Source of the DNA: an uncultured Candidatus Saccharibacteria bacterium
GTDB taxonomy: Bacteria; Patescibacteriota; SICC01; CAYSOT01
Direction of reading: 5' to 3'
Length of the DNA stretch: 64,000 nt
NCBI GenBank assembly: GCA_964432765.1
Contig: CAYSOT010000001.1
Coordinates: 66,096 to 130,095 of the forward strand
Below the pieces are notes generated by a model that was given only the letters and a program-made list of their open reading frames with translations, made no database searches and was not told where the DNA came from. Made by a program: the position numbers and the translations under genes. This document shows positions 505-51,853 of the stretch, piece after piece (positions within the stretch are counted from its first letter, which is position 1; the number at the start of each line of letters is the position of its first letter).

Positions 505-1488
505 TTACGGCACAGGAGAGGGCGAAGGTGCGGGTGTAGGTGCGAGGAATTCTTTTCCAACCCGGCGCTGGCCTTCAGCACCAAGCGCTCCCCGGTCTTG
601 GCCATTGATAAAGACGCGGGTACTGCCCCCGTTTGAAGTCGTAATGAGTGCACGTGACTGCACGCTGAACGTCTGCTCAGAGTTTGGCAGGAGCAGTCCT
701 TGGAAGGCGACTTTCCCATCGACATTGACACCGACATAGGCAGAGTTGGGACCAACTTTGACGGTGAGCAGCATCCCGGAAGCAACTGGGGCAGGGGTTG
801 GTGTAGCAGCTATCTGGCCTGTTAGCACCACCGAGCGCGTGACGACCTTTTCTTTGCCCGATTTGTTCTTGGCCGAAACACGTAATGTATTTGGTCCGGA
901 CAGCAGACGGACTTCTTCACGGAATCCGCCGTTTGGATCGGTGGGGACGGGTTGTCCGTTAATACTTAACTCGGCACCGGCGTCGGTAGTGCCTTCGACG
1001 GTTACTGATTCGGTTGAAACCTGGGCGTTAGCAACCGGAGTTAAGACCTCGAGTTTTGGTGGAGCTGCTACGAACCCAAAAATCTGAGACAGCAGATAGC
1101 CCGATGCAAGCAATAGGCTGAAGATACCTCCGGCAATCCAGAGCGTTCGGGGTGTAATCGTGATTGGCGATTGCTTGGCACGGGTCATAGGAATCTTCGG
1201 AAGTTTCGGGGTCTGCTTTGCGAGTCCCCGTTCACGGCGATATTGGAGCAAGATTTCATCTGATGGAAAACCGAGAAACGCCGCATAGTTTTCCAAGAAC
1301 CCACGTGCGTACACGTCGGCTGGAAATTCTTCGTAACGCCCTTCTTCGAGCGCCTCTAGAAATTTATGGTGAATCTTGGTTTGCCTGGCAACTTCTTCTA
1401 GTGATAATTTCGCTGTTTTACGAACATCCCGTAGCTGCCGGCCAACCGGTACATCAGACGCTATTTCTCGCTTCTTGAATTCAGCCAT
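505..1488 (-). CDS. rodZ: RodZ-like cytoskeleton protein (N-terminal XRE-type HTH, single TM segment, C-terminal extracytoplasmic domain)
   Basis: The N-terminus GRQLRDVRKTAKLSLEEVARQTKIHHKFLEALEEG is a helix-turn-helix. A hydrophobic segment LWIAGGIFSLLLASGYLL follows, then a Pro/Thr-rich linker and a beta-rich C-terminal domain. Confidence 0.6.
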   Translation of the reverse strand: MAEFKKREIASDVPVGRQLRDVRKTAKLSLEEVARQTKIHHKFLEALEEGRYEEFPADVYARGFLENYAAFLGFPSDEILLQYRRERGLAKQTPKLPKIPMTRAKQSPITITPRTLWIAGGIFSLLLASGYLLSQIFGFVAAPPKLEVLTPVANAQVSTESVTVEGTTDAGAELSINGQPVPTDPNGGFREEVRLLSGPNTLRVSAKNKSGKEKVVTRSVVLTGQIAATPTPAPVASGMLLTVKVGPNSAYVGVNVDGKVAFQGLLLPNSEQTFSVQSRALITTSNGGSTRVFINGQDRGALGAEGQRRVGKEFLAPTPAPSPSPVP

Positions 1489-1537: not shown

Positions 1538-3616
1538 CTAGAAGTCGTCTGATTCGACGAGGATCTCGCGAGGTTTTGCTCCCTCACCCGGGCCAATGAC
1601 GCCATTTTCTTCAAGCATGTCGAGAAGCCGTGCCGCACGTGCGTAGCCAACCTTCAAGCGCCGCTGCAGAAGCGATGCTGAAGCCTTACGAGAGCGGATA
1701 ACTTCGGCCTTTGCTTCTTGGTAAAGTGGATCTTCGTCATCGCCACTGAGCATATCGCCACCGGCGCCGGCGCCCTGCGGTGTTTCGGTAACCGATTCGT
1801 CATAGGCCGGGGCGCCTTTGCCTTTTAGGAAGTCGGTTAAGCGTTTCACTTCTTTCGTTTCCATAAACGCCGACTGGACGCGAAGTGGTTTGGCCACGTT
1901 TCCTGGCAAGAAGAGCGAATCTCCACGGCCAAGTAGCTTTTCTGCCCCACCCATGTCGAGAATAGTTCGTGAGTCAGTCTGCGACGTGACCGTAAAGGCA
2001 ATTCTACTCGGGAAGTTTGCTTTAATGAGTCCGGTAATGACATCGACCGATGGCCGCTGTGTTGCCAAGATTAAGTGTATTCCGGTTGCGCGAGCCAACT
2101 GGGCAATACGGACGATTGCTGCTTCTACGGCCTTCCCTGACACCATCATTAGGTCTGCCAGCTCGTCGATAACCACGACAAGGTAGGGCAACTCTTCGTC
2201 CTTATGGCGACCATTGTATTCACCAATATTTCGTACTCGCTCGTCTTGGAAGAGCTTATAGCGACGATCCATTTCTGCGGTTAGCCATTTCAGCGCATTA
2301 ATCACTTTGGGGGGATCGACTATAACCGGCGCCAAGAGATGTGGGATGTCATTATAGGCATTTAGTTCGACTCGCTTTGGGTCAACCAGCAACAGCCGCA
2401 AGTGCTTTGGCGAGTGAGTAAACAGAAGTGAGCCGAGAATCGCGTTGATACCGACAGATTTTCCGGATCCAGTCGCACCGGCGATCAACAGATGAGGCAT
2501 CGTGGTGAGATCAGCCACTACAGCCTCACCAGAGACGTCGAGGCCGAGCGCGAGCGGCAGCGTACCGCCTCCCTTCCACTGCTCCGAAGAAAGCAGCTGG
2601 GAGAGCCTGACAGTCGCAGCGCGCTGGTTGGGCACCTCGATACCGACTGTCGACTTGCCGGGAATCGGCGCTTCGATCCGAATTGGATGGGCCGCCAGTG
2701 ACAGAGCCAGGTCGTTATTGAGAGCGGTTATTTGATTTAGTTTCACGCCCGGGTCTGGCCGAAGTTCATATTGGGCAACCGTCGGGCCAACATTCACAGA
2801 AACAACAGAGGCAACCACCCCGAAGTTAGCAAGCGTTTGCTCTATGATGGCTGCTGAACGTTTAAGATCTCCTGCTTGGGCACTCGATGTAGCCGAAGAC
2901 AAGAGTGAGAGCGGCGGCTGCTCCCAGGTAGAGTCGACTGCGCGCGGTACAAAATCCGGCTCTGCGGAGCTCTGTGGTCGTGCTTTGGCGGGAGTCGGGG
3001 TCGGCGCTGGCGCTGGCGGTGCCTGAGGGGTCGGTCGCACCACCGCGGGAGCTGCATCGACCGCTTCTTCCTTCTCTCTACGCAGCGGCCTGTTGCGAAC
3101 AATGACGATACCGGCAAGTACAAGGGCGAGAAAGATCAGATACGAACCAAGTGAGCCGAGGGCGTAGAGGGTTGTGTTCGAGAGCGCATACCCAAGGAGG
3201 CCGCCGCCATGACCATCGCGCGCCGCAGCAAGCGGCTCATTAGCAATAAAGAGGTGCAGAAAACCGGTTGCACCAAGGATGATCAAGCTTACGCCAATTG
3301 GCTGACGGCGTGGTGTGTCTTGTTTGAGCAAGGTGACGACGCCAAAGTACAGAGCGGCGGCGGCTACGGCCCAGGCAGCCCATCCAAACAGCTGACCTAC
3401 CCAACGCGCAACGACTGAACCAAGCGGACCCCCAACACCAGCAAGTGCTAGCAAAAGAATCAGTCCAAAGAGTGACAGTAAAATCCCACCAACTGTGCGC
3501 TGTGCTTCTTCGGAGAGCAACGGTTCAGCAGGCGCCGGCTGTTGCCGTCGCCTTGCGGGGCGACGAGTCTGGGGGCTTCGTCGTGTCGTTTTTCTGCGTC
3601 GTTTTGTTTGAGCCAT
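1538..3616 (-). CDS. ftsK: DNA translocase FtsK/SpoIIIE
   Basis: It has N-terminal transmembrane helices and a Pro-rich linker. The Walker A motif is GATGSGKS and the Walker B motif is LVVVIDELADLMM. The C-terminal gamma domain LLQRRLKVGYARAARLLDMLEENGVIGP is present. Confidence 0.9.
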   Translation of the reverse strand: MAQTKRRRKTTRRSPQTRRPARRRQQPAPAEPLLSEEAQRTVGGILLSLFGLILLLALAGVGGPLGSVVARWVGQLFGWAAWAVAAAALYFGVVTLLKQDTPRRQPIGVSLIILGATGFLHLFIANEPLAAARDGHGGGLLGYALSNTTLYALGSLGSYLIFLALVLAGIVIVRNRPLRREKEEAVDAAPAVVRPTPQAPPAPAPTPTPAKARPQSSAEPDFVPRAVDSTWEQPPLSLLSSATSSAQAGDLKRSAAIIEQTLANFGVVASVVSVNVGPTVAQYELRPDPGVKLNQITALNNDLALSLAAHPIRIEAPIPGKSTVGIEVPNQRAATVRLSQLLSSEQWKGGGTLPLALGLDVSGEAVVADLTTMPHLLIAGATGSGKSVGINAILGSLLFTHSPKHLRLLLVDPKRVELNAYNDIPHLLAPVIVDPPKVINALKWLTAEMDRRYKLFQDERVRNIGEYNGRHKDEELPYLVVVIDELADLMMVSGKAVEAAIVRIAQLARATGIHLILATQRPSVDVITGLIKANFPSRIAFTVTSQTDSRTILDMGGAEKLLGRGDSLFLPGNVAKPLRVQSAFMETKEVKRLTDFLKGKGAPAYDESVTETPQGAGAGGDMLSGDDEDPLYQEAKAEVIRSRKASASLLQRRLKVGYARAARLLDMLEENGVIGPGEGAKPREILVESDDF

Positions 3617-3638: not shown

Positions 3639-5222
3639 CTACGCCTTCCGGAACCGCCTGAGAAGTACTTTTGCTTCTGGCAAACCCATTCTGTTTGTAA
3701 GCCACAGATAGACCGCGGCCCCGAGCAAAGATCCAACCACCAGCTGCGTAAAGAAGTAAGCGAAGGTAAATCGACTTGAGATTTCCTCGACCAAGAACGC
3801 GACGCCATAGAGACTTCCATAGATAACGACACCCATAACCAGCGAGGCAACAAGCATTTTGGTGACAGCATTGATCATGGCCTGGTCTTCAAGCTGCGGC
3901 ACTTTGGCTGACAAGAAGAAAAAGAGGAGCGAAAGCTGCACAATACTGGCGATCGTGAACGACACCGCTAAGCCGACAACCCCGAGATAGTGCGACGCAA
4001 TTAGCGCTAGGGCGATATTCAGCAGCATACACAACCCGGAAATAATAACTGGCGTCTTGGTGTTGCGTAGAGAATAGAAGGCGCGTGTAAGTAGTGGGAT
4101 CAGCGCTTGGGCGAAAAGACTGACCGCCAATATACCGAGCAGTGAGGTGACATAGCGCGTGTCGGTAAAGTCGAACTTTCCTGAACCAAACGCGACACGA
4201 ACGATTTGGGCGCGCAAAAGCATCATTGCCACTGAGGCTGGAATCACGACGTAGAGAATATTTCGGATCACTTCAAGTAGTGTCGCGAGAAACTTATCGG
4301 TATCGCGCACGCTCGCAGCTCGCGCCAGCACCGGAAATGCGGCGGTCGCAAAAGATGCGCCGACGACTCCGACGGGGATCATCGAAAGACTTGTGGCAAG
4401 CATGAACTGGGAAAGAGAGCCGGGGCGCAGCGTTGTGGCGATTACTGTTTCGATCAAGAGATTAAACTGCAGAATCGCTACGCCGATGGTCGTTGGGATC
4501 ATCAAGATGAATATTCGGCGCACACCCGGGTGTTTAATCTCAAGCACAGGGCGGAACCGAAACTTCGTCCGTACCACCCCAATCAGCTGAACCACCATTT
4601 GCAAAAACGCACCCGAAACAACGCCGATTGCGAGCCAGACCAGACCGTACCTTGGAGCTAGTAGTGCGCCGATGATAATACCAACGTTGTAAATAAGCGG
4701 CGCAATGGCATAGGCCAAGAAACGTTGGTAGGTATTGAGAATGCTGCCAAAGATACCCGACAGACCAAAGAAGATTGGTGAAAGCAGCATGATCCGAGTG
4801 AGTAAGACGACTTCATCGAGCTGCGAAGGCGTAAAACCTGGCGCAACAAGAGGCATGATCTGTGGCGCAAAAATGGCAATAATGCTTGCCGCAAAGATGA
4901 GGACGATCAGCGCAAGCGTCAGAATAGTGGAGCCGACATTGTCTGCTTCACGTTGCTGATGTTTAGCAACATAGCCAGCAAATATTGGGATGAAGGCAGC
5001 CGAGATTGCACCCCAAACGAGAATGTTGAAGACAAAGTCCGGAACTCGAAAAGCCGCATAATAAATATCGAGTTGTGGCCCGGCGCCAAAACCAGACGCC
5101 AGCAAGCGATCGCGCACCAACCCAAGCACACGTGACGCGAGCGACGCGGAGGCAAGAATAACAGTCGCCCCGCCGATCGTGGCAGTAAAGATAGAAAACC
5201 GATTGAGTGTTCGTTTAATCAC
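3639..5222 (-). CDS. murJ: Lipid II flippase MurJ/MviN
   Basis: The 527 aa polytopic membrane protein begins with the MurJ-typical TATIGGATVILASASLASRVLGLVRDRLLASGFGAGPQLDIYYAAFRVPDF. Confidence 0.85.
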   Translation of the reverse strand: MIKRTLNRFSIFTATIGGATVILASASLASRVLGLVRDRLLASGFGAGPQLDIYYAAFRVPDFVFNILVWGAISAAFIPIFAGYVAKHQQREADNVGSTILTLALIVLIFAASIIAIFAPQIMPLVAPGFTPSQLDEVVLLTRIMLLSPIFFGLSGIFGSILNTYQRFLAYAIAPLIYNVGIIIGALLAPRYGLVWLAIGVVSGAFLQMVVQLIGVVRTKFRFRPVLEIKHPGVRRIFILMIPTTIGVAILQFNLLIETVIATTLRPGSLSQFMLATSLSMIPVGVVGASFATAAFPVLARAASVRDTDKFLATLLEVIRNILYVVIPASVAMMLLRAQIVRVAFGSGKFDFTDTRYVTSLLGILAVSLFAQALIPLLTRAFYSLRNTKTPVIISGLCMLLNIALALIASHYLGVVGLAVSFTIASIVQLSLLFFFLSAKVPQLEDQAMINAVTKMLVASLVMGVVIYGSLYGVAFLVEEISSRFTFAYFFTQLVVGSLLGAAVYLWLTNRMGLPEAKVLLRRFRKA

Positions 5223-5280: not shown

Positions 5281-7116
5281 CTACTTTGTGGCGTGCCGGT
5301 TCTTAAGCTTTTCTACGTCGGGGAAGAGCTTGTCGTAGTCTTCGCCTTCGATTGTTTCGTCTTTGAGTAGTCGCTCAGCAATCTCATTGAGCTTCTTGCG
5401 GTTCTTGCGAATGATATCGGCAGCAGTTTTATAAGCAGAGTCGATAATCTGCTTCACTTCAGCATCAATTTCACTGGCAACACGTTCGGAGTAATGCCGT
5501 TGCTCACCCAGTTCGCGACCCAAGAAAACCATTTCCTCACGCTCGCGGTAAGCGATCGTGCCAAGCTTCTCGCTCATTCCGTAATCAACAACCATGCTTC
5601 GTGCAAGCTCGCTCGCCTTTTGAATATCAGATGAAGCACCCGTGGTAACCTCACCGAAGACTGCACGCTCTGCCGCGTGCCCAGCCAAAGCTGCAGCTAG
5701 ATCTTCTTCAAAATCCGGTCGTGATCGAAGGTAGCGTTCTTCATCGGGCATATACCACGTAACGCCGCCTGCTGTTCCCCGGGAAATAATACTCACCTTA
5801 TGCACTGGATCTGGTCTTGGCAGCAGTGTCGCCACAAGCGCGTGCCCTGCTTCGTGATAGGCCACAATCTTCTTTTCCTTCTCGTTCATCATGCGGCTGC
5901 GGCGCTCTGGTCCGAGCAGCACTTTCTCGATCGAGGCCATCAGTTCGGCCTGTCCAACTTTCTTTTTATTACGCCGGGCAGTGAGGATTGCGGCTTCGTT
6001 AAACAGGTTTGCCAGGTCAGCTCCAGCAAATCCTGGGGTCTGTTTCGCTACTTTACCGAGATCGACATCCGAGGCAAGTGGCTTGCCCTTCGCGTGTACG
6101 GCGAGGATTTCTTCGCGCTCGCGCCTGTCTGGACGATCAATGACGACACGCCGATCGAACCGACCTGGGCGCAAAAGCGCTGGATCGAGTACGTCTGGTC
6201 GGTTAGTCGCCGCCATAACAATCACATTCGTATCTTGCTCGAAGCCATCCATCTCGGTAAGGATTTGGTTGAGTGTCTGCTCGCGCTCATCATGGCTTCC
6301 TCCAAGCCCGGCGCCTCGCTGACGTCCGACCGCATCAATTTCGTCGATGAAAATAATGCACGGCGCATTTCGCTTGGCCTTGGCAAAGAGATCACGAACA
6401 CGTGATGCGCCGACACCAACGAACATCTCGACAAATTCGGAACCTGAAATCGAGAAGAAGGGCACGTCGGCTTCACCAGCAACAGCGCGCGCCAGCAGCG
6501 TCTTACCGGTTCCCGGAGGACCAACGAGCAGCACACCCTTTGGAATACGCGCTCCGACGCCAGCAAACTTAGCCGGATACTTGAGAAAATCGACTACTTC
6601 GCGCAGTTCCTCCTTCGCTTCTGTTACACCGGCGACGTCGCTAAACGTGACGCGCTTTTGATCGGCATTGAAGAGTCTGGCACGGCTACGACCAAACGAC
6701 ATGGCCTGGTTATTACCAGATTGCGCCTGGCGAAGCATAAAGTAGAGAAAACCGCCGATCAAAAGAAGCGGAATGATGAATGAGAGTATATTCACCCACG
6801 TCGAGTAGTCTTTCGGAGTCGACTCAGTAACCTCGACTTTAGAGAGCTGTTCATCGGTCACGCCAAACGACTTCAGATAGGCAGGGAGGGACTCACCGAT
6901 ATACTGCGACTCAATCTTTTTGCCACTAGTCGTTTCAACAGTTACCTTACGACCTTCGGTCTGAATAGATTTGACCTGACCGGTCTTCACTTCATCTATC
7001 ACATTTGAGATCGGAACCTGTGAAGGTTGGGTACTCGTAGAAGCGGTAGCCGAATAGATCGCGGCCACAATGAGGACGGCTCCGACAAGATACAGCAGAC
7101 TGCGGAAACTTCGCAT
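5281..7116 (-). CDS. ftsH: ATP-dependent zinc metalloprotease FtsH
   Basis: It has two TM segments, an AAA module ([28 protein letters not shown]) and the zinc protease HEAGHALV motif. Confidence 0.95.
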
Positions 7117-7155: not shown

Positions 7156-8523
7156 CTACCGACGACCACAACTGAGTGTCACGTGCGCCTGAGTGGAGTC
7201 GGCTGCAAAGCGACGATCGGCGCGGAATCCGGCCACCCAGACGATATCGCCTGCTTCGGTTGTAATGATCGGAACGAATGGCCGCTCTGCCCTTGGCACT
7301 TTTTGGTCCGTCAGTAAATCGGATATTAATTTGCTGCCTCGCATTCCGGACGGCTTAAAACGGTCACCCACTTTCGGTGACCTAACAATGAGTCGATCCC
7401 CGATAAGCCGACTATCAATTCGGATAGATTCCGCAGGGGCCTCTTTTCGATCTGCACCGATCTCGATATCGCCAAAACGAATATGCCCTGGGATCGTAAG
7501 AGTTTGCTTGCTGGGGGGCGCTATGGGCTCGCCACGATGTAGTCTGACTGTCCCGTATTCATGAACTGCAACAATACCGTGCGGTAGGTGGAGTTGACTG
7601 CCGGGTGCGCGCGCTAAGAGGGCGTCGAGATCTTCAACATGTCGAAGATGAAATCCGACTAGGTTTCCCTGGAGCGTTTCGAACGCTTCGCGCCATACAA
7701 GATGCCGCAGTGCCCGCGATTCAGCGTTGAGCCGCCTGACAGAAAGAGAAACCTCACCTTCGCGATTCTCAGCGACTCGCTCGAAGGCTTCGCGAGCAAT
7801 ATGGCGAAGTAGTAAGTATTCATCAGAAAAAACCTCCATGCTCTGTGAAACTGTCTCGATGAGCTGTGGGTTAATTTTCTGAAGACTTTTTATGACAACG
7901 TGCCTGATCCGATTTCTGGCATACCGTAGAGATCTGTTGGTTGGGTCAAGTCGGTACTTTAACTTGTGTTTTCGCACATACTTTGCGATTTCCCGGCGCG
8001 GGATTGGCAAGAGTGGGCGGATAAGTTTGCCGTTTTCTACGTCCATCCCGCGAAGTCCAGCGAGACCGCTCCCCCTTGAGAGGTGCAAAAGAAGTGTCTC
8101 TACCTGATCATCCGCTTGGTGGGCAGTTACGATGTAGTCTGCCTTTTTCCGCAGACGAGCTTCTTCGAGCCACGTGTAGCGAGCCTTCCTTGCTTCATCT
8201 TCAGATCGCTTCTTTGAAGGCCGCGCTCGTTTAGAAACGAATGGAAGACTGTAGTCTTTAGCTAGTTTCTTAACAAATTCGGCGTCTTTCGCCGATGAAC
8301 TGCGCCACCCATGGTCGAAGTGTGCAACAACTAACTCGAGATTAAGTGCCGCTCTTAAGCGCAACAACATATCAAGCAGAGCTACCGAATCGACTCCCCC
8401 GGAAACGGCAACCAGTAGGCGCTTGTCGTGATACGGCTCAAGATTCTCGCCAACAATGGCCAATACATTCATCCCGCAAACTCCTGCGAGAACATCTTGC
8501 CACGTGCGCCACCATTCATACAT
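7156..8523 (-). CDS. tilS: tRNA(Ile)-lysidine synthetase TilS
   Basis: The PP-loop SGGVDS is present in LLVAVSGGVDSVALLDML. The 455 aa length is typical of TilS. The true start may be the internal Met at about 8472 (MNVLAIVG...), which would remove the 55 nt overlap with the upstream gene. Confidence 0.85.
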   Translation of the reverse strand: MYEWWRTWQDVLAGVCGMNVLAIVGENLEPYHDKRLLVAVSGGVDSVALLDMLLRLRAALNLELVVAHFDHGWRSSSAKDAEFVKKLAKDYSLPFVSKRARPSKKRSEDEARKARYTWLEEARLRKKADYIVTAHQADDQVETLLLHLSRGSGLAGLRGMDVENGKLIRPLLPIPRREIAKYVRKHKLKYRLDPTNRSLRYARNRIRHVVIKSLQKINPQLIETVSQSMEVFSDEYLLLRHIAREAFERVAENREGEVSLSVRRLNAESRALRHLVWREAFETLQGNLVGFHLRHVEDLDALLARAPGSQLHLPHGIVAVHEYGTVRLHRGEPIAPPSKQTLTIPGHIRFGDIEIGADRKEAPAESIRIDSRLIGDRLIVRSPKVGDRFKPSGMRGSKLISDLLTDQKVPRAERPFVPIITTEAGDIVWVAGFRADRRFAADSTQAHVTLSCGRR

Positions 8524-9476
8524 CCGATACCTAAGCGACGATACTCTGGCTTCAGGATATTGGCGCGGTGCCCTGGTGAGTTCATTAAGCCTTCATGCGC
8601 TACATCCACGTTTGGCGCCAAAGCTATGTTTTCACCTGCGAGCTGGTATTTAATGCCGGCTGCATCCATGCGATCGAATGGAGTCAAACCATCAGGCGTA
8701 TCATGTGCGAAATATCCCCTCGCAAACATGTCTTTCGAGTGCGCCCTCCCAACATCCCGTAGCTCTGAATCAGCTTGAACTGGCCGCAAACCATTAGCTG
8801 TGCGCTCCTTGTTTACAAGTGCGAGCATCGCCTCTTCGTCGGCGGCACAAACCGTCGGGTTGGCAACGGAAAATCCGAGCGTCAACGATTCTCCGGGTTC
8901 TGTTTTGACTGTGCGAAGTTTTACAAACTGCTGCAGTGCCCCGCCAAAAAGTGAATCAAAGGTGGGACTTAGTGCAGTACTCACTGCGATTGCAGGTTTC
9001 GCCAGAGGGTTTGCTTCAACGTCGGCTTTTACTGCATCAGCTACTGGAGCCGTCAGCACAATTTGAGCCACAACGCACAATAAAATGAATCCGCGAACCA
9101 ATGCTGGGAATATCCCAAGCGTGCGAGTTGCCTGGTTAAGTGGCGGTACATGCACCCGGATGCGACGCCAAATAAGCGTACCGAGCGCTTCGGTTCCTAT
9201 CCAGATTATGAAGAAGGCGATGAAACGCCACATCTCTATGCTCAGTAGGCCCGACATGTTCAGCAAAGAGCCGAGCGGAGAGGCAAGAGCCAGCGCTAGA
9301 GCGAACGAGATGATCAGTATCACAAGGTCAGCAAGCTGTTCCCAAAACCCCTGCCGCCAGCCCACAAAAGCGTAGAGGGCAAGGAGTGCCAAAATTAGAA
9401 GCGTGATAATCACGTCCTTAGTATAGGCCGCTAACGCACGGTGATGTCTTCGTAGACACCAAAGTCTTCGAGCCAA
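8469..9476 (-). CDS. Membrane protein with C-terminal CAP (SCP/PR-1, YkwD-like) domain
   Basis: There are 5-6 N-terminal TM helices. The C-terminal GYFAHDTPDG...GENIA...HEGLMNSPGHRANIL...GIGC matches the CAP superfamily signature. Confidence 0.7.
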   Translation of the reverse strand: MARRLWCLRRHHRALAAYTKDVIITLLILALLALYAFVGWRQGFWEQLADLVILIISFALALALASPLGSLLNMSGLLSIEMWRFIAFFIIWIGTEALGTLIWRRIRVHVPPLNQATRTLGIFPALVRGFILLCVVAQIVLTAPVADAVKADVEANPLAKPAIAVSTALSPTFDSLFGGALQQFVKLRTVKTEPGESLTLGFSVANPTVCAADEEAMLALVNKERTANGLRPVQADSELRDVGRAHSKDMFARGYFAHDTPDGLTPFDRMDAAGIKYQLAGENIALAPNVDVAHEGLMNSPGHRANILKPEYRRLGIGCMNGGARGKMFSQEFAG

Positions 9477-11929
9477 GCAAATCCATCAGCCACCAGGCGG
9501 AAGTACTGTCGATATGGCTGCACCCTGGCAGAAACAGTGCTTGCATCGAGTGCGACCATGAATCGGGCGGTCTCTCCTGGGTCTATTTGGTTATTTGAAT
9601 CGGCGACCACGGTCCCTCCGACCACCTTGCCAGCCATGAATGTCCCGACGCGATACCGTGTCAGCCAGTTGTCGGTGTCAGTTGGCAGTTGACCACCACT
9701 AAGGCCAATTGCCGCAAATGGTGAATTTTGGTCCATAGGCGTTGGTGCAAGACTGACAACCCCGCCACGTACCCACGGATATGTACCGGTATTTTTGAAG
9801 TCTACGAATATACTTCCGTAAGGACTGGTGGCTTTAGTAATAGTTGGAAACGCTGATTGACCAGCCCACTGCGCCCTGTAGCCCTGAGAGATAGACACCG
9901 GCCAGTAAATGCCGCTGTCATTAAGCCAAGCTTTTCCATCTACAACGAGATTGAAGAACTCGGCTGCAGCATATGGCCGATTCGGGCTCAGAGCCTGGAA
10001 AACGAATGTGGCTGCTTCGCCAGGCTGAACACTCGTCGCTGTATTGTCGTACGTTACATTGCCGCCACCATCACGTATCGGCTGGCCGGAACCATCCAAA
10101 TACGTCTTGCCAGCAAATGTTCCGATGCGGTGTGGCCCTTGCCAACTTGGATCCGCAATACCGCTACTGCGATCATTCGGCCTACTTGTACCGATCCGGA
10201 TAGTGTTGGCATCACCCGTATTAGTCCAGGCAACATTCCCGGTATTCTTGATGGTTAGAGAAAGTGTCGATGGCGTATTTGGTAGATTTGAGACGCTTCC
10301 GCTCTGTGTGAGCCACTGATATGAGAAACTGTCCGGTACGTTTGTAACAGTCCAGTAGATTCCAAGGTCGCGGCTAAACCAGGTGAGCCCTTCGGCGAGG
10401 GGACGATAATAAACCGCGTGCGTTCCGCTGAACGTACCGCCGCGCAGTGTGAAGCTGAACCTGGCAATTTCTCCTGGGGCAATCGACGTGGCGGAAGAGG
10501 TGGTCTTTGAGCCATCGCCGTTAATCGTGACTTTTTCAGTGAATGTGCCGGGACGAGCTGGATTAACCCAAGACGGATCGGCAAAACCGTCTGGCCTATC
10601 CCGATAGCGATCGGTACCGAGACGGACTGGGTTTGCCCCAGAGTTTTGCCAGGTGGCTAGACCTTCATTTTTCAGATCGAGATACACACTCGCAGTCTGT
10701 CCTGTGCGAAGTGTGAGCGTGCTACCCGAGCTGCCGTTTACTCCCTGCCCCTGGTAGGAATAGTCGTAATTACGGAATCCCATGTAATACGAAACGTAGT
10801 CATTGGTGCGATTCCGCACATTGCCAAGCTGGGCGTATTCGTACTGACCCGGACAAGCAGTGCTTGTATAGTCACGGTGCCCACTAAGCATATATTGAGT
10901 ACGTCCACTTGAATCTACGTAGGTCCGCCACGGTGCAAGGTTTGCCTTTGACATTAAGTATCCCGCGATATTGCTGACACTCTCATTAAGCTGCCCATAG
11001 GGCTGGCTAACGTCGAAGTTGCCAATCGTTGCAATGCCGGCACTATAGCGATTGAAGCCAAGTGTATGGCCCCCCTCAACAACAACGTTGTTAGTATTCG
11101 CAAAAGCCGCGTCGAAGTAACGACCCTGGAAAATGTTCCCTGAAACATCAACGAGATAATTGTAGCCAATATCTCCCCAGCCCTGATTGACGGCGTGGCT
11201 CTGCCAAATGCTCCGTACTGCGGCCGCACCATTTGGCGGATTGCCAGCTGTCACCGTATGGTGAACCATCACGCGCTGCAGAGCCCAATATTCCGGTGTC
11301 CAACTCGGTGAACTCGTCGCTTCAGGACACCCCCACTCTGCCCGAGAAATGATCCGCGGCGCTACATCAGCCGCCTTCGCCCGGGAAACTAAACTCGTTT
11401 TCTTGGCCGTCGGGTCTGGCCCTACACTGGCATCGATAAAGCTGAATCGGGGATTCTTGAAACTGACGGTCTGGCCTTCGCCATTCAAGCTGGCTCGATA
11501 CTGTACGTCTTTGGCACCATCGGCCAAGACAAACCCCGAATGTGCTCCATTGACCGGGGCAGTATCGGGGCGATCCTCGTCATCAACCGTCACCCAATCC
11601 GTCCAGCCCGTCTTGGTCTGGACACGAACTTGAACTTCGACTGCGTCGTGAGCGCCATCTTGATCCCACTGAAGTGCCACACCCGTTGTGTGTGCTTGTT
11701 CAGTTTTCACTGGCTGCGCCTCATAGCTGAGTGCTCCACTCGTTTTGAGCTCGGCACCACCTCCTAGATTCTCTCCACTTGTCACGCGACCTTCAGCGAG
11801 ATTGCCTTGTTTGTAGGACTGCTTAATATCGGCCTTAGTAGGTGAACCATCGGTAAGCAACAGCCCAACCGAAAGCGCCCCGAGTAGAGCTGCCGAGGCA
11901 ATGATAACTGTACTAAGTTTTTGTTTCAT
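9431..11929 (-). CDS. Secreted multidomain N-acetylmuramoyl-L-alanine amidase (PGRP/Amidase_2 domain) with four C-terminal ~110-aa repeat modules
   Basis: Signal peptide: MKQKLSTVIIASAALLGALSVG. Amidase_2 core: WGCPE...VMVHHTVT...GWGDIGYNYLVDVSGNIFQGRYFD...EGGHTLGFNRYSAGIATIGNF...GHRDYTSTACPG. After this come four repeats, each containing a (R/T)xGTF ... ADPSW ... FxF pattern. Confidence 0.8.
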   Translation of the reverse strand: MKQKLSTVIIASAALLGALSVGLLLTDGSPTKADIKQSYKQGNLAEGRVTSGENLGGGAELKTSGALSYEAQPVKTEQAHTTGVALQWDQDGAHDAVEVQVRVQTKTGWTDWVTVDDEDRPDTAPVNGAHSGFVLADGAKDVQYRASLNGEGQTVSFKNPRFSFIDASVGPDPTAKKTSLVSRAKAADVAPRIISRAEWGCPEATSSPSWTPEYWALQRVMVHHTVTAGNPPNGAAAVRSIWQSHAVNQGWGDIGYNYLVDVSGNIFQGRYFDAAFANTNNVVVEGGHTLGFNRYSAGIATIGNFDVSQPYGQLNESVSNIAGYLMSKANLAPWRTYVDSSGRTQYMLSGHRDYTSTACPGQYEYAQLGNVRNRTNDYVSYYMGFRNYDYSYQGQGVNGSSGSTLTLRTGQTASVYLDLKNEGLATWQNSGANPVRLGTDRYRDRPDGFADPSWVNPARPGTFTEKVTINGDGSKTTSSATSIAPGEIARFSFTLRGGTFSGTHAVYYRPLAEGLTWFSRDLGIYWTVTNVPDSFSYQWLTQSGSVSNLPNTPSTLSLTIKNTGNVAWTNTGDANTIRIGTSRPNDRSSGIADPSWQGPHRIGTFAGKTYLDGSGQPIRDGGGNVTYDNTATSVQPGEAATFVFQALSPNRPYAAAEFFNLVVDGKAWLNDSGIYWPVSISQGYRAQWAGQSAFPTITKATSPYGSIFVDFKNTGTYPWVRGGVVSLAPTPMDQNSPFAAIGLSGGQLPTDTDNWLTRYRVGTFMAGKVVGGTVVADSNNQIDPGETARFMVALDASTVSARVQPYRQYFRLVADGFAWLEDFGVYEDITVR

Positions 11930-12035
11930 TATGGGAAAATACCACCATTAAGGTATTTTTGCAAATAGAGGAGAGACACAATCCCATTCTAGTAAGGTCT
12001 CTCTACGATTGCGAGCGGGCAACAAGGCCAAGATG

Positions 12036-12108
12036 TGGCAGTGGGTGGATTCGAACCACCGACCAACAGCTTATGAGTCTGCTGCTCTAACCACTGAGCT
12101 ACACTGCC
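12036..12108 (-). tRNA. tRNA with CAT anticodon (elongator tRNA-Met or tRNA-Ile2)
   Basis: RC = GGCAGTGTAGCTCAGTGGTTAGAGCAGCAGACTCATAAGCTGTTGGTCGGTGGTTCGAATCCACCCACTGCCA. It folds as a cloverleaf: G1-C72 closes a 7-bp acceptor stem, a T-arm GGTGG/CCACC is present, and the anticodon loop is cuCAUaa. The CCA end is not encoded. Confidence 0.85.
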
Positions 12109-12183
12109 GGGTTTAGACGCCAAAGCGGCGCACATCAAGTATGCCGAGCTTCGGGATGAACCTCAAGCGTGCTGCCAACCTTG

Positions 12184-12255
12184 TAGCGGGGGCAGGACTC
12201 GAACCTGCGACCTCGTGGTTATGAGCCACGCGAGCTGCCACTGCTCCACCCCGCA
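12184..12255 (-). tRNA. Initiator tRNA-fMet (CAT)
   Basis: RC = TGCGGGGTGGAGCAGTGGCAGCTCGCGTGGCTCATAACCACGAGGTCGCAGGTTCGAGTCCTGCCCCCGCTA. It is very similar to E. coli tRNA-fMet (CGCGGGGUGGAGCAG...CCCCCGCAACCA). Position 1 is unpaired with 72, as expected for an initiator, and the anticodon stem carries G-C pairs. Confidence 0.85.
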
Positions 12256-12305
12256 TCGTGCGTACGTCGTACGGTACCTTATGGTACCTCCTCCATAGCG
12301 CTCTA

Positions 12306-12710
12306 TCAAGCGTTGTGACTACCAAAGAAGTAGCGCCACCATGCCTCTGGGTTCGACGGGGGCGGTGTTGGCTTTGTCTCGATTCCTGGACGAGTAAGGT
12401 TTGAAGAGTCATCACCTGTCGGCATCGGCACTACGATCACTCTCTCACCAGGTTTTTGATAGTTTAGTCTGGTCCGGGCTTCTTTTTCTTTAAACGAATC
12501 TGTTCGGTAATACGCGGTTAAGTTCTTAAGCTGGGTGTTTTGCTCTTCAAGCGAGCTTATCTCATTCTTTAGAGAAATTCTGTCTTGGTGAATTCTGTAG
12601 TTTTCAACGATCAGCTTTACCGACCCGAGCAGTAGATAGCCGATCACAATAAGAGCAAAGATATTGCCGGAACGTTGCCTGATCCATGAACTGATGTTTG
12701 ATTTCGCCAT
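12306..12710 (-). CDS. ftsB: Septum formation initiator (FtsB/DivIC-like) protein
   Basis: It has a single N-terminal TM helix (IFALIVIGYLLLGSV) and a coiled-coil segment ISLKNEISSLEEQNTQLKNLTAYYRTDSFKEKEARTRLNYQKPGE. The KEKEAR...LNY..PGE tail is typical of FtsB/DivIC. Confidence 0.65.
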   Translation of the reverse strand: MAKSNISSWIRQRSGNIFALIVIGYLLLGSVKLIVENYRIHQDRISLKNEISSLEEQNTQLKNLTAYYRTDSFKEKEARTRLNYQKPGERVIVVPMPTGDDSSNLTRPGIETKPTPPPSNPEAWWRYFFGSHNA

Positions 12711-12742
12711 ACGGCTCTAGCCTACACTACCGAATCGTCTTG

Positions 12743-12815
12743 TGGGCCCGCTAGGACTTGAACCTAGGACCTACCGGTTATGAGCCGGCTGCTCTAACCA
12801 CTGAGCTACGGGCCC
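12743..12815 (-). tRNA. tRNA with CAT anticodon, resembling tRNA-Ile2 (lysidine, LAU)
   Basis: RC = GGGCCCGTAGCTCAGTGGTTAGAGCAGCCGGCTCATAACCGGTAGGTCCTAGGTTCAAGTCCTAGCGGGCCCA. This is a good cloverleaf and is strikingly similar to E. coli ileX (GGCCCCUUAGCUCAGUGGUUAGAGCAGGCGACUCAUAAUCGCUUGGUCGCUGGUUCAAGUCCAGCAGGGGCC). The choice between Met and Ile2 identity is not certain. Confidence 0.8.
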
Positions 12816-14991: not shown

Positions 14992-16119
14992 CTACTCGAG
15001 ATCAAGCAGAGTAAGGGCAATTTTCAGTTGGACTGCATCGTCAAATGTTTCCGGGTCGAGCCCGATAAGCTCACGAATCTTTCCGAGGCGGTAGATAAGC
15101 GTGTTGCGATGTATGTGTAGAGCTTTTGAAGCGTTAGTGAGATTGAGACTATGTTCGAAATAGCCACGCAGAGTTTTTGTAAGATCTGGATCTTTCAGCA
15201 TGGGCGCAAGCGCTCGCTTAGCTATTTGTACCTGCTTATCCAAATCCAGATCAGCAAAGACGATGTTCAGACCAATATCGTCGATGTAGTACGCTTTTCC
15301 GGGCTCGTAGAGCTTCGAGCCGAGGCGAAGTGCCGCCGCAGCTTCACGGTATGAAGTTAAAAGCCCTTCGATACCAAGGTGCAAACCACCGATACCAACC
15401 GTAATACCCGCCCCAAGATTAGCCATCATTTGCTGCGCCTTTTGCCTGAATAGATCTAGGGTTTCGTCGTTTCTAGCAGCGTCCTTCAAAATAAGAAACG
15501 TGTTATAGCCAAAATAGGTGACCGTGTTGTCGCTTGAAGATGGAAAGAGGGCCGTAATCTCACGGGCAAGCTTTTCCTTGAAACGCGCTATCGGTTCATT
15601 TTTATCAGCAGCAGGGGCAAGTTTATCTTGGAAATCAGGGACTTCAACAAGGGTCACAAATCGTTGTTTTGTGAGATCTATGCCGAGCAGCTTGGCTTCA
15701 TCGACTAGGCGTTCTCGCTCTGCATCGCTCAAGCTGTGAAAAAGCTGCCACAGTACCTGATCAAGACTCTCTGTAACCCTTTGTTGAGACTCTTGTTCCA
15801 GCAGCAGTTCAGCAAAGCTCTTTGTCACGGGAACAACGTCCTTAACGTGGGGCAGGTCGCTATGCAGCACAAGCCCAGCAACTATTTCACCGCCTTGTCT
15901 GAGCGGAATGACGACTGCTGAGTCACCGTCGAGTTCGAATATGTCGCCTTTTGTGAGAGATCCAGAAACACCGGACAGCATGGATCCGGCAAGATTTGGG
16001 TCGTAAGAAGCTATTAATTCGCCGCTTGGGCTTACAAGGCTCGCATCACGCCCCAAAAGACTCATCACCTGAGTGACGAGAGTTTTCGCAAGATGCGGAC
16101 TAATGGTCTGCATACGCAT
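14992..16119 (-). CDS. CdaR/PucR-family transcriptional regulator (C-terminal PucR HTH)
   Basis: The C-terminus LNLTNASKALHIHRNTLIYRLGKIRELIGLDPETFDDAVQLKIAL is the PucR-type HTH. The N-terminal region resembles a CdaR sugar-diacid sensing domain. Confidence 0.7.
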   Translation of the reverse strand: MRMQTISPHLAKTLVTQVMSLLGRDASLVSPSGELIASYDPNLAGSMLSGVSGSLTKGDIFELDGDSAVVIPLRQGGEIVAGLVLHSDLPHVKDVVPVTKSFAELLLEQESQQRVTESLDQVLWQLFHSLSDAERERLVDEAKLLGIDLTKQRFVTLVEVPDFQDKLAPAADKNEPIARFKEKLAREITALFPSSSDNTVTYFGYNTFLILKDAARNDETLDLFRQKAQQMMANLGAGITVGIGGLHLGIEGLLTSYREAAAALRLGSKLYEPGKAYYIDDIGLNIVFADLDLDKQVQIAKRALAPMLKDPDLTKTLRGYFEHSLNLTNASKALHIHRNTLIYRLGKIRELIGLDPETFDDAVQLKIALTLLDLE

Positions 16120-17074: not shown

Positions 17075-18208
17075 ATGAAAAGAATTGCTTTCGGCCTACT
17101 CGCCCTCTGTCTTATCGCTCTTCCTCAAGGAGCATGGGCTGTCTCGACACAAACTGGCGAGGATATCGTGATCCCAGCAGCGCAGCCTCTCCAGGACGAT
17201 CTCTACGCCGTAGGAACAAACATTACAATCGATGGCACACTGGAGGGGGATCTCGTCGTGTTTGGTTCCACCGTGACAATTAACGGGGTGGTCAACGGAA
17301 ACGTCTGGGCGATGGCAGAAACGGTTAACGTTAAAGGAACCGTGACCGGCTCAGTTCGAGCTGCGGCAGGTACGGTGGAAATTTCTGGAAATGTGAAGAG
17401 GGATGCGGTAGTTGCTGCAAGCACCTTTAGGCTCACAAAAACCGGTATTATTGGTCGCGACGTAAAGCTTGCGGCTGCAACTGCAAACTTCGATGGGGCC
17501 GTTGTTCGAAATGTTTCAGTGCAAGCGCAGCGACCAGAAATTAATGGGGCCATCGGCGGAACGGCTCGGGTATCATCGGCAGAGGGGACAAAACTTGGCT
17601 CGACAGCCAACATCGCTGGCAATCTTACGGTAATAAGTAGCAACAGTATCAATCGCGACCCAGGGGCTGTAGTCCAAGGCACATTCAGTGAGGAAAAGCC
17701 CCAAAAATCCTACTCGGGCCACCTTCTCAGTCAATGGTACTGGTTCTTGGCTTCGCTGATTTTGCTGTTAGGCATGCTCGCCTATGCTCGTCGCGCCGTC
17801 TTGCGAGGACGAGACATCTTACTTGAGCGACCGTTGCTTGCCCCGCTACTGGGTATCGGGTTTGTGCTGCTTGTCCCCCTAGTGGCGCTGTTGATGATTG
17901 CCATTCTGGTTGGAATTCCGGTGGCGCTTGTTACTCTCGGGCTCTACGTACTTGTTCTCTACACGGCAAAAATATTCGTATCTATCCTGATTGGTTCAGT
18001 CCTTTTGCGGCTGCCAAACGCTCACGATGCGGCGTTTTGGAAAGTAGCCCTGGCTGGCATTCTGGGGCTTGCGTTCTACTACTTGCTGACCGCGGTACCG
18101 TTTATCGGAACACCGCTTGTAGTCTTGATCATGCTCTGGGGCGTCGGGGCACAGCTCCTGCTCGCCAAGGAAGTTTATGCCTCACTCAGAGCAAAGTACG
18201 GCGCCTGA
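17075..18208 (+). CDS. Signal-peptide protein with bactofilin/DUF583-like beta-helix repeats and a C-terminal polytopic membrane domain
   Basis: Signal peptide: MKRIAFGLLALCLIALPQGAWA. Repeated G(T/S)V-x-I/V-x-G-x-V segments follow (TIDGTLEGDLVVFGSTVTINGVVNGNVWAMAETVNVKGTVTGSV...), then 4-5 TM helices. Confidence 0.55.
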   Translation: MKRIAFGLLALCLIALPQGAWAVSTQTGEDIVIPAAQPLQDDLYAVGTNITIDGTLEGDLVVFGSTVTINGVVNGNVWAMAETVNVKGTVTGSVRAAAGTVEISGNVKRDAVVAASTFRLTKTGIIGRDVKLAAATANFDGAVVRNVSVQAQRPEINGAIGGTARVSSAEGTKLGSTANIAGNLTVISSNSINRDPGAVVQGTFSEEKPQKSYSGHLLSQWYWFLASLILLLGMLAYARRAVLRGRDILLERPLLAPLLGIGFVLLVPLVALLMIAILVGIPVALVTLGLYVLVLYTAKIFVSILIGSVLLRLPNAHDAAFWKVALAGILGLAFYYLLTAVPFIGTPLVVLIMLWGVGAQLLLAKEVYASLRAKYGA

Positions 18209-19276
18209 TCAAAGCATATGACCGTAGAGGGTAATGATCCCAGTCTTGTGGCGGATCATTATGTAATGGCCAAATCCTGACCCATCAGTGCGATTGTCAC
18301 GAATCACGACGCCATCGGCAGCGGCACGTATAGGAGAACCACAAGGTTGAACAAAGTCGATACCATTGTGAATATTGCCACCATACGCTCCTCCACGTGC
18401 CCAATCTGTCATCCCAAACGGTTGACTGATACTTCCATCGGGCTGATGAAGAATCGTCCAGAAGTTCGCGGGATCGACCCAGCGCCCATTCTCTATGACC
18501 GAAAAGTGGAGGTGGCATCCAGTTGAGTTCCCCGTTGAACCTTCAAATCCGATGATGTCTCCCTGGCGCACAGAAGCTCCGTCTTTATAGGTGCCCCACA
18601 ACGCGCCTCCGCTGCCTGCAAGGATTGCATCCTGAGCAGACTTTTCCCGCGCAATTTTTTCGTTAAGATAGGCTGCCTCATTCGCGCGGTTGGCAATCAT
18701 ATCGGCAAGTTCGGTTTTTTGTTGCGCCGTACCTTCCGAAAGCGCAACTAGTTGACGCTGCAGTACCTCGAGTGTCGAACGTTTTAGATCAAGGTCTGAC
18801 TTTGTGGTTTGCATACTTTCTGCGCTCTCTTGTGCTGAGTCAGAGATGTCTCTTAGCCTAGATTCGATCTGCTGTGCATAGGCAACCCGTGTCAGCGTAT
18901 CGCTTACAGAACCCCCTTCAGCCAAGAGGCGATATGGGTCTACCGGAGTTGTTGTGTAGTCTTTTTGAATTGCCGATTTCAAAATATCGAGACGGTGTCG
19001 ATACTCTTTCGTTTTCTGCTCGAGAGCCGGAACCAACTTATCTGACTCCGCCGACATTTGCGCAATCTTTTGCTCTGTTTCAGCTCGTTTGGCATCGGCG
19101 GTAGCAATGGTCGCCTGAAGCGCTTCAATCCGAGTGCCAAGCGCCCCGATTTCCGTATTGATTCCGTCAAGCGCTTGCTGATCTTTGGCTACCTGTTGAC
19201 CGAGATAGTCCTCATTTGCACTCACGGCCAGCGGCAGGGTTAAGCAAAGTGCCAGCAGAATTATATTTAGTCGCAT
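18209..19276 (-). CDS. M23 family metallopeptidase with N-terminal coiled-coil (EnvC-like murein DD-endopeptidase/activator)
   Basis: The signal peptide is followed by a long coiled-coil. The C-terminal M23 motifs are HNGIDF, GSTGNSTGCHLHFSV and HxH. Confidence 0.8.
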   Translation of the reverse strand: MRLNIILLALCLTLPLAVSANEDYLGQQVAKDQQALDGINTEIGALGTRIEALQATIATADAKRAETEQKIAQMSAESDKLVPALEQKTKEYRHRLDILKSAIQKDYTTTPVDPYRLLAEGGSVSDTLTRVAYAQQIESRLRDISDSAQESAESMQTTKSDLDLKRSTLEVLQRQLVALSEGTAQQKTELADMIANRANEAAYLNEKIAREKSAQDAILAGSGGALWGTYKDGASVRQGDIIGFEGSTGNSTGCHLHFSVIENGRWVDPANFWTILHQPDGSISQPFGMTDWARGGAYGGNIHNGIDFVQPCGSPIRAAADGVVIRDNRTDGSGFGHYIMIRHKTGIITLYGHML

Positions 19277-43932: not shown

Positions 43933-44502
43933 AGCAGCACTTCCACCAAGCAGAAAGAATTGGAGTGCGCTTTTACGAAGCGATGTCTTAGTCGCAACGC
44001 CCTTGAATATGCCGACCATAATAAATGTGATGGCCCCAAGCACCACGGTGACCTTTGCCGCCGTGGCCGGCTCAAGTCCAAAAAAGAATGGAATGAGCGG
44101 GATCATGCCACTAATTACGTAGACGACCCACATCACCCCGGCAGCAACAAACGGGTTTGCGAGCACCGAATCGATGCGGTGTTTATCATGTTGATCCAGC
44201 GACAACCTAAAGTAGTCATCTTCTGAGGTGCGCGAAAGATACGTTCCGGTCGACATGGCAAAGGCACTCGTGAAAACATCGACGAGAACGGCCAAAATAA
44301 TCAACCGATTTGAAACGAGTGATGCTGTGAATCCGGTAATGATGCCGATGTTAGTCAGAAGAGCATCGTTGGTTCCAAACACAATATCACGTATGAATTG
44401 TCCGGCTACAGGTGTTTTTTCATTGTTGTTTGCCATGTTGTAAGTATACGCGTGAAGAGAAAAAGAAGCGCGGCGGTTGGGTCTCTGGATGAGATGTTCC
44501 AA
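43882..44502 (-). CDS. VIT1/CCC1-family (DUF125) iron/manganese transporter
   Basis: FGTNDALLTNIGIITGF and later TM helices match the VIT family. The start may be Met at about 44436. Confidence 0.65.
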   Translation of the reverse strand: MEHLIQRPNRRASFSLHAYTYNMANNNEKTPVAGQFIRDIVFGTNDALLTNIGIITGFTASLVSNRLIILAVLVDVFTSAFAMSTGTYLSRTSEDDYFRLSLDQHDKHRIDSVLANPFVAAGVMWVVYVISGMIPLIPFFFGLEPATAAKVTVVLGAITFIMVGIFKGVATKTSLRKSALQFFLLGGSAALIGYLIGLISSNLNIQ

Positions 44503-44522
44503 CCGCCGCGCGGTAGAGGTTT

Positions 44523-44873: not shown

Positions 44874-44938
44874 GCTTACCTACCTTTCAACGAGCCTGGA
44901 CGAAGAATACGTCTTGTGCGAAATGGCGGCAAGTAGAC

Positions 44939-51792: not shown

Positions 51793-51853
51793 ATGGCATA
51801 AGTTTAACGCAGCTAGAATTGTTTGTCCCCGTGGCGAAGGGTAGGATACCTGT

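Follow-up and report, generated by a model that had tools for sequence, protein, structure and literature searches.

The window, a stretch of 64,000 nucleotides from an uncultured Candidatus Saccharibacteria bacterium (contig CAYSOT010000001.1), encodes a predicted peptidoglycan amidase of 832 residues on its minus strand (9431..11929). This protein is probably a housekeeping envelope amidase that works on the cell's own wall, carries an exchangeable targeting array for a conserved ligand and is expressed together with division and envelope genes. The evidence comes from the intact catalytic residues, from three C-terminal repeats of the NBR1/FW immunoglobulin-like (Ig-like) family and from a gene order that is conserved among relatives. 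A sequence-only reading of the same DNA had placed the protein in a host-surface attack or attachment apparatus, and this proposal is weighed below.

Layout and catalytic domain of the amidase

The 832-residue open reading frame (ORF) is present as had been described, and a co-oriented ORF (8469..9476, minus strand) lies next to it. Annotation of the protein combined Pfam, hydropathy, comparison of repeat segments and an AlphaFold2 (AF2) model, in which local confidence is given as the predicted local distance difference test (pLDDT). The features of the gene are the following.

9431..11929, minus strand: amidase gene, 832 residues (ORF list, Pfam, AF2 model with mean pLDDT 88, 100% match to NCBI protein P0001)
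9431..11929, minus strand: domain order signal/anchor, N-terminal beta-sandwich, Amidase_2 domain, three FW-type repeats
11843..11929, minus strand: N-terminal export signal or signal-anchor, residues 1-29 (hydropathy; AF2 helix 2-26)
11420..11833, minus strand: N-terminal beta-sandwich, residues 33-170, no family assigned (AF2 strands 34-169, pLDDT about 70-94 per 10-residue block)
10766..11362, minus strand: Amidase_2/PGRP-type domain, predicted zinc N-acetylmuramoyl-L-alanine amidase, residues about 190-388 (PF01510)
10319..10756, minus strand: FW/NBR1-like Ig repeat 1, residues 392-537 (segment comparison, repeat hidden Markov model)
9872..10318, minus strand: FW/NBR1-like Ig repeat 2, residues 538-686 (segment comparison, repeat hidden Markov model, weak PF16158 match at 551-662)
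9434..9871, minus strand: FW/NBR1-like Ig repeat 3, residues 687-832 (segment comparison, repeat hidden Markov model)

The alignment comprised 30 full-length relatives with 31-85% identity to the window protein, and the AF2 model was built on it. PF01510 matches residues 218-362 of the window protein with 44.4 bits against a cut-off of 26 (E 2.6e-11, Pfam) and is also matched by 30 of the 30 orthologues. By sequence, the closest relatives of solved structure are PGRPs (4zxm, E 7e-16), and T7 lysozyme is more distant. With PF01510 above its gathering score and PGRPs as the best solved relatives, the proposed Amidase_2/PGRP-type identity was confirmed. Foldseek gave target-normalised template modelling scores (TM-scores) of 0.75-0.85 to PGRP-LB, PGRP-SA and the endolysin LysCS; local pLDDT in the catalytic domain is mostly about 77-93. 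H223, H224, Y256, H351 and C359 are invariant among the orthologues, and T357 is conserved in at least 90% of them. The HH and GHRD..STACPG motifs align with those of catalytic PGRPs (PGRP3). H223, Y256, H351 and C359 presumably correspond to H17, Y46, H122 and C130 of T7 lysozyme, the zinc ligands and the catalytic tyrosine of that enzyme. Because the zinc-binding and catalytic residues are intact, including the cysteine that receptor-type PGRPs lose, the enzyme should be active as a zinc N-acetylmuramoyl-L-alanine amidase.

The fold (TM-score about 0.8), the His/His/Cys zinc site and the tyrosine are thus shared with PGRPs, T7 lysozyme and Amidase_2 endolysins, such as Drosophila PGRP-LB (7nsx) and Clostridium LysCS (6srt). 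Those have a single domain or add modules of the SH3b or another type, whereas the 832 residues of the window amidase include an N-terminal beta-sandwich and three Ig domains of the FW type. Unlike them, it is also chromosomally fixed in a division and envelope gene cluster.

Hydropathy analysis found a single hydrophobic segment, residues 7-25, which makes the proposed export of the protein plausible and leaves at most 5-6 residues in the cytoplasm. The N-terminal helix has no lipobox. A candidate cleavage site, TKA/D, is not kept, and most orthologues have QPKT/DIK. Because this site is not conserved among the orthologues, the protein may be either cleaved and secreted or held in the membrane by its N-terminal helix. 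In the AF2 model, the helix (2-26) is followed by the beta-sandwich (33-170), a short linker of low confidence (177-186, pLDDT below 50), an alpha/beta domain (about 190-388) and three beta-sandwiches (390-832), so that the catalytic domain is modelled as membrane-proximal and the repeats as distal. W109, W112, Q143, Y144, R145 and D166 of the N-terminal beta-sandwich are invariant in the alignment. This domain is co-conserved with the amidase domain in matches from Chloroflexota, in which the query was matched from residues about 30-100 on.

The combination of PF01510 and PF16158 is already present in the precomputed Pfam annotation. In the cluster of P0002, whose amidase is 84% identical, one assembly splits the gene into two ORFs, P0388 (508 residues) and P0389 (327 residues). 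Both lie on one ENA contig of 18835 bp. Either the gene is frameshifted or a pseudogene in this close strain, or the split is a sequencing error.

Three repeats of the NBR1/FW family

The sequence-only reading had noticed a C-terminal array of four repeats of about 110 residues. The array exists far beyond chance, but it consists of three copies of about 145 residues. A hidden Markov model of the repeat places exactly three copies, at residues 395-537, 538-686 and 687-832. In pairwise segment comparisons, repeats 1 and 2 are 37% identical (E 2e-26), repeats 1 and 3 are 27% identical (E 2e-13), and repeats 2 and 3 are 28% identical (E 8e-14). Self-BLAST of the whole protein gave no internal matches, and it is only by pairwise segment comparison that the repeats become visible. 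Repeat 3 contains an insertion of 12-15 residues ahead of the conserved tryptophan. The N-terminal beta-sandwich was considered as a fourth repeat and rejected (E above 0.5 against the repeats). A core of the form (R/T)xGTF...ADPSW, suggested before as common to all copies, did not stand up either: DPSW occurs in two repeats only (positions 451 and 593), and it precedes the R.GTF motif instead of following it.

Conservation of the repeats and of the catalytic domain is about equal. The amidase domain has a mean identity of 51% to the window protein, repeat 1 has 49%, repeat 2 has 45% and repeat 3 has 47%, and the N-terminal domain is lower, at 36.5%. Furthermore, each repeat is nearer to the repeat at the orthologous position in other proteins than to the neighbouring repeats of its own protein. 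This conservation and positional orthology argue for a conserved ligand of the repeats. All close relatives have three copies. Of the 120 amidase homologues listed, 35 have no copy, 9 have one, 35 have two, 33 have three and 8 have four. In the syntenic orthologue P0029 (L090:7001-9094), the N-terminal domain, the amidase domain and one FW repeat are kept, and PF18885 (DUF5648) replaces repeats 2 and 3. This suggests that FW repeats behave as an exchangeable accessory module.

The repeat had been thought to fit no named domain. A domain search assigned it to PF16158 (N_BRCA1_IG), which is the FW ("four-tryptophan") domain of NBR1. The window protein itself has a sub-threshold match to PF16158 at residues 551-662 (19.7 bits, cut-off 28, E 1.3e-3). 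Of the 30 orthologues, 28 match the family at E of 0.01 or less (best E 5e-13), as do 13 of 27 isolated repeats. Thus, membership of PF16158 holds for the repeats at the level of the family, with the copy in the window below the threshold. SH3b, LysM, PG_binding_1, SPOR, AMIN, CW_binding and SLH were absent from the C-terminal 440 residues, where PF16158 was the only Pfam match at E of 1 or less; the standard wall-binding families typical of autolysins, which had been named as an alternative identity, are therefore not detectable. Other Pfam families found across orthologues (NPCBM_assoc, fn3_5 and CARDB among them) are Ig-like only. The repeat alignment was examined for the four tryptophans of the FW domain: W31 and W59 do not vary in it, W131 is conserved in at least 90%, and a fourth aromatic residue near the start (W, F or Y) is found in repeats 2 and 3 only.

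Structure comparison is consistent with this assignment. For the repeat part of the full-length model, Foldseek brought up generic multi-Ig proteins, and repeat 2 was therefore modelled as a single domain (pLDDT 89). The best matches of this model in the PDB include the FW domains of human NBR1 (4ole), of the fungal Ams1-Nbr1 complex (7vqo) and of ILRUN (6vhi). The repeat profile searched against PDB sequences gave chance-level matches only and did not reach the NBR1 FW domain. Like the NBR1 and ILRUN domains (4ole, 6vhi, 7vqo), the window repeats are modelled as Ig-like beta-sandwiches, and they have conserved tryptophans that may correspond to those of the FW domain. In the eukaryotic NBR1 FW domain, the pocket that takes up a free N-terminal Gly-Gly peptide is aromatic and conserved. 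Eukaryotic FW domains occur singly in the cytosol and bind Ams1 and MAP1B (PMC9233695, PMC3357945), whereas the window repeats are three tandem copies, predicted to be extracytoplasmic, and each is about 35-40 residues longer. Bacterial FW domains are mentioned in the literature chiefly as cytoplasmic XRE-FW regulators (PMC3357945, PMC9582228, PMC9233695), that is, not as wall enzymes. The NBR1 literature that we found gives no bacterial function or ligand of FW domains. A literature search on the window amidase family, amidases of Saccharibacteria and Patescibacteria, bacterial PF16158 and the combination of CvpA and CAP found nothing on this protein family.

The repeat profile was searched against 1.84 billion cluster representatives. 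It matched 4245 proteins at E of 1e-3 or less and 2086 at E of 1e-10 or less, mostly with 2-8 copies each. We sampled 48 proteins from the top matches, and 40 of them were positive for PF16158 at E of 1e-5 or less. The co-occurring domains in this sample were SpoIID (11), Amidase_2 (9), S8 protease (4), M23 (3), GH6 (2), GSDH (2), GH113 and others; GH99 was also among the polysaccharide hydrolases that carry FW arrays. About half of the sampled proteins are wall hydrolases (SpoIID, Amidase_2, M23). Judged from such domain combinations, FW arrays are a probable wall-targeting module.

A second N_BRCA1_IG protein of 692 residues is encoded at L085:2437-4515 (minus strand), 2.5 kb from the gene of a distant amidase homologue, P0053, which has an extra B_lectin domain. 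Both genes lie within a cluster of glycosyltransferase, pyruvyl-transferase and UDP-glucose dehydrogenase genes. Their shared position in this cluster hints that FW-domain proteins associate with wall-glycopolymer loci.

The division and envelope gene cluster

The amidase gene is surrounded by genes of cell division and envelope synthesis, which are listed here together with the parts of the adjacent CvpA-CAP gene.

12035..12815, minus strand: DivIC/FtsB gene (12306-12710) flanked by three tRNA(CAT) genes, upstream of the amidase gene
8469..9413, minus strand: CvpA-CAP membrane protein, 314 residues from GTG 9413 (identical to the NCBI protein P0266 of 314 residues)
9057..9413, minus strand: CvpA (Colicin_V) four-helix membrane anchor (PF02674, 52.6 bits, cut-off 29.3)
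8478..8825, minus strand: CAP/YkwD-type domain, predicted extracytoplasmic (PF00188, 63.6 bits, cut-off 21.1, full profile 1-117)
7156..8472, minus strand: tilS, from ATG 8472 (the longest ORF starts at 8523)
5281-7116, minus strand: ftsH
3639-5222, minus strand: murJ
1538-3616, minus strand: ftsK
505-1488, minus strand: rodZ-like gene

The order on the minus strand is thus DivIC, amidase, CvpA-CAP, TilS, FtsH, MurJ, FtsK and RodZ-like. The core of amidase, CvpA-CAP, TilS and FtsH is found in eleven related loci (among them L001-L007, L083, L084 and L090), in which the amidase identity is 36-48%. DivIC upstream and MurJ and FtsK downstream are also found in those loci wherever the sequence reaches. 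Small insertions occur there (such as PRK, a toxin-antitoxin pair and an SDR gene), and they never part the amidase gene from the CvpA-CAP gene. Relatives of the amidase in Patescibacteria come from Saccharibacteria, Peregrinibacteria, Gracilibacteria, Peribacteria and WWE3. Those in Chloroflexota come from Anaerolineae, Chloroflexia and Dehalococcoidia, and the matches span the N-terminal domain and the amidase domain, often with the first repeat. A scan for promoters and terminators gave counts no higher than those in shuffled sequences and was not used.

The CvpA-CAP gene follows the amidase gene directly. Its longest ORF reaches TTG 9476 inside the amidase gene, and the start is most likely GTG 9413, 17 nucleotides past the amidase stop. 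The ATG of tilS overlaps the TGA of the CvpA-CAP gene (ATGA). The neighbour had been described as a membrane-anchored CAP protein with six transmembrane (TM) segments; the CAP domain and the anchor are there, but four TM segments are predicted instead of six. TM3 and TM4 are joined by a positively charged loop, WRRIRVH, and by the positive-inside rule this arginine-rich loop suggests an N-out/C-out topology, in which the CAP domain would lie outside the cell. On the CAP domain, the YkwD model TIGR02909 scores 131.2 bits (E 2e-38), below its cut-off of 171, so that the protein is related to YkwD and not filed as such. The DalA model NF052539 scores 52.5 bits (E 5e-14) there, below its cut-off of 200, and the protein has a CvpA 4-TM anchor, not a lipobox. 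The MarP model NF033740 matches the TM region only (23.4 bits, cut-off 250).

Two known systems resemble this protein in part. MarP of M. tuberculosis likewise has a CvpA-like 4-TM anchor that presents an extracytoplasmic domain, which is a serine protease in MarP and a CAP domain in the window protein. A passage in PMC9897464, which cites Botella 2017, states that MarP can cleave the wall hydrolase RipA. DalA, a divisome-associated lipoprotein of Rhodobacter, and B. subtilis YkwD-type proteins are alike in the CAP-type ectodomain, below the curated cut-offs. For DalA, this likeness rests only on the sub-threshold NCBIfam match, and the DalA paper, which reports that the protein binds peptidoglycan and accumulates at the septum (PMC10470522), describes no CAP domain. 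Moreover, DalA is an outer-membrane lipoprotein, whereas the window protein has a CvpA 4-TM anchor. The fusion of CvpA and CAP (about 318 residues) is very common in Patescibacteria, with 3425 matches. It occurs there without the amidase, beside a copper ATPase and DUF218 or beside two class A penicillin-binding proteins (PBPs). Because it is common in other lineages next to unrelated or other envelope genes, CvpA-CAP is not a dedicated partner of the amidase. A functional link between the two is possible by analogy, with adjacency within one clade and the precedents of MarP and DalA as its basis. As a member of the Patescibacteria, this organism probably has a single-membrane cell.

Several further features were observed around this cluster. 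The tRNA genes with the anticodon CAT lie at 12035-12108, 12183-12255 and 12742-12815 (all minus strand). The copy at 12183-12255 begins with CGCGGGG and resembles an initiator tRNA; one of the other two may be tRNA-Ile2. The product of tilS converts the CAU anticodon of tRNA-Ile2 to lysidine. A PucR-type regulator (14992-16119) and a bactofilin are also conserved near the amidase in L083, L084 and L090. The bactofilin-domain protein (17075-18208, plus strand) has a signal peptide and a C-terminal half with multiple TM segments, and its stop abuts (18208/18209) that of a convergent M23 gene. The latter encodes an EnvC-like protein (18209-19276, minus strand) with a signal peptide, a long coiled coil and an M23 domain whose halves have changed places: the G.TG..TG.HLHF half (about 238-268) comes ahead of the H.GIDF...GHY..I.H...LYGHML half (about 300-355), after which the protein ends. 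An M23 fragment at L003:5-139, a locus with a 45% identical amidase, is 70% identical and ends alike in LYAHLL followed by the stop. Because this relative ends in the same way, the arrangement looks like a genuine circular permutation and not an assembly error. Farther away, an ORF of 1196 residues (48469-52059, minus strand) encodes a transporter of the AcrB/RND family, in a presumably single-membrane Patescibacteria genome. The region 44001-46000 reaches 57.6% G+C, whereas the window is otherwise at about 50%, and no rRNA or other Rfam family was found in it.

Own wall or host wall

If the amidase is a housekeeping enzyme, it would be exported by the Sec pathway and either be secreted or stay in the membrane by its N-terminal helix. 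From the membrane outward, the beta-sandwich, the Amidase_2 domain and the three tandem NBR1/FW-type Ig-like domains would follow one another. The FW array would most likely position or retain the enzyme on a wall ligand, which could be peptidoglycan or a wall-attached glycopolymer, in the way that repeat domains do so in other modular autolysins. The enzyme itself would most likely act on the cell's own peptidoglycan, in septum splitting or wall turnover, and would be expressed together with CvpA-CAP and then tilS, ftsH, murJ and ftsK as part of an envelope and division cluster. The closest model for such a way of working is staphylococcal Atl/AtlE, in which an Amidase_2-type autolysin carries tandem repeats of about 150 residues (R1-R3) that direct the enzyme to the wall or septum. 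The Atl repeats are SH3b/GW-like, whereas the window repeats are NBR1/FW-type Ig domains, and the glucosaminidase of Atl is absent from the window protein.

Several points weigh against this view. Distant homologues (35% identity or less) sit elsewhere, and the two cases examined adjoin genes of surface-glycopolymer synthesis. The gene order may only mirror a general collinearity of a narrow clade, since PucR, bactofilin and other neighbours are conserved too. As for the repeats, those of the window protein fall below the PF16158 gathering threshold (19.7 against 28 bits), and the Foldseek matches to FW domains are modest (E 0.014-0.044, TM-scores 0.5-0.64), with other Ig-like domains scoring similarly. 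In the sample of 48 proteins, FW domains accompany GH6, GH113, S8 and GSDH enzymes as well. Eukaryotic FW domains bind proteins (PMC9233695), and a wall ligand is presumed for the window repeats. Finally, the cultivated members of the organism's group are epibionts, and a host-directed role is possible.

A host-directed enzyme or adhesin is the strongest of the alternatives, yet an unlikely one. It would bring the amidase to the wall of a host bacterium, with the FW array reading the host surface and CvpA-CAP taking part in a contact apparatus. The nearest relatives are indeed metagenome-assembled genomes of Patescibacteria and Saccharibacteria, and the Amidase_2 family includes phage lysins. 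In addition, the modelled C-terminal array of several Ig domains, if long and rigid, could reach past the cell's own wall. Peptidoglycan hydrolases have reportedly been proposed as tools against the host wall in predators of the candidate phyla radiation (CPR). However, no pili or secretion-system genes adjoin the amidase gene, whose neighbours are DivIC, TilS, FtsH, MurJ, FtsK and RodZ-like, and the repeats are not hypervariable. The model places the catalytic domain on the membrane-proximal side, and CvpA-CAP occurs across Patescibacteria without the amidase, beside PBPs or copper ATPase/DUF218. The architecture of N-terminal domain, amidase and repeat is also found in Chloroflexota, which are not known for epibiotic growth. 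We found no positive evidence for the host-attack proposal of the sequence-only reading, and the conserved synteny with division genes, which that reading had itself named as counter-evidence, speaks against it. The idea keeps some weight because the group is epibiotic, with all cultivated members being epibionts according to a passage in PMC11623550, and because no FW ligand is known in bacteria.

It is still less probable that the enzyme serves scavenging or recycling, stripping peptides from muropeptides or wall fragments of a neighbour or host while the FW array holds the polymeric substrate. This would feed an organism of poor biosynthetic capacity, and it fits the apparently small genomes of the clade (contigs of 0.6-1 Mb), an enzyme predicted to be extracellular and catalytically intact, and the FW arrays on the polysaccharide hydrolases GH6, GH113 and GH99. 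There are, however, no transporter or downstream catabolic genes adjacent to the amidase gene, its synteny is with division genes, and nothing separates scavenging from housekeeping turnover.

A non-catalytic peptidoglycan sensor is very improbable. The best matches by sequence and structure are animal PGRPs, several of which are receptors, but all three zinc ligands, including the cysteine lost in receptors, and the catalytic tyrosine are invariant, no signalling domain is present and no more than 5-6 residues lie in the cytoplasm; a receptor-type PGRP was rejected on the invariant zinc ligands and tyrosine. Descent from a prophage or phage endolysin is the least credible of all: the catalytic domain has matches in the endolysin and amidase families of PHROG, and residues about 150-370 align with Streptomyces phage endolysins (28-30% identity), but none of the phage records spans 80% or more of the protein or matches the repeats beyond about residue 415, the protein has an N-terminal export signal, and no phage genes are nearby. 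A prophage origin was rejected on the phage database matches, which stay within the catalytic domain and below 31% identity, and on the cellular neighbours, and the conserved synteny, a chromosomal position stable across species, effectively refutes it.

For the present, the window protein counts as an ordinary modular autolysin from an uncultured lineage, and precomputed annotations already show its architecture of PF01510 and PF16158. The analysis corrects a tempting host-attack reading of a Patescibacteria gene, with evidence in favour of a place in the division and wall machinery of the organism itself. For the repeat family, bacterial FW domains appear mostly as extracytoplasmic tandem arrays on wall hydrolases, whereas the NBR1 literature found mentions cytoplasmic XRE-FW regulators only. 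We tentatively suggest a wider picture, in which tandem NBR1/FW-type Ig domains are widespread bacterial wall-targeting modules, the cargo-binding domain of NBR1 descends from one of them, and CvpA-CAP might control the amidase as MarP does RipA. Such domains occur in thousands of protein clusters, on SpoIID, Amidase_2 and M23 hydrolases of Patescibacteria and Chloroflexota; if the suggestion is true, NBR1, a eukaryotic autophagy receptor, would owe the domain that binds its cargo to a bacterial wall-binding module. The FW ligand, if identified, would define a new wall-binding module that could be of use in engineered lysins or as a probe of CPR and Chloroflexota walls, and it would inform the evolutionary origin of the cargo-recognition domain of NBR1.

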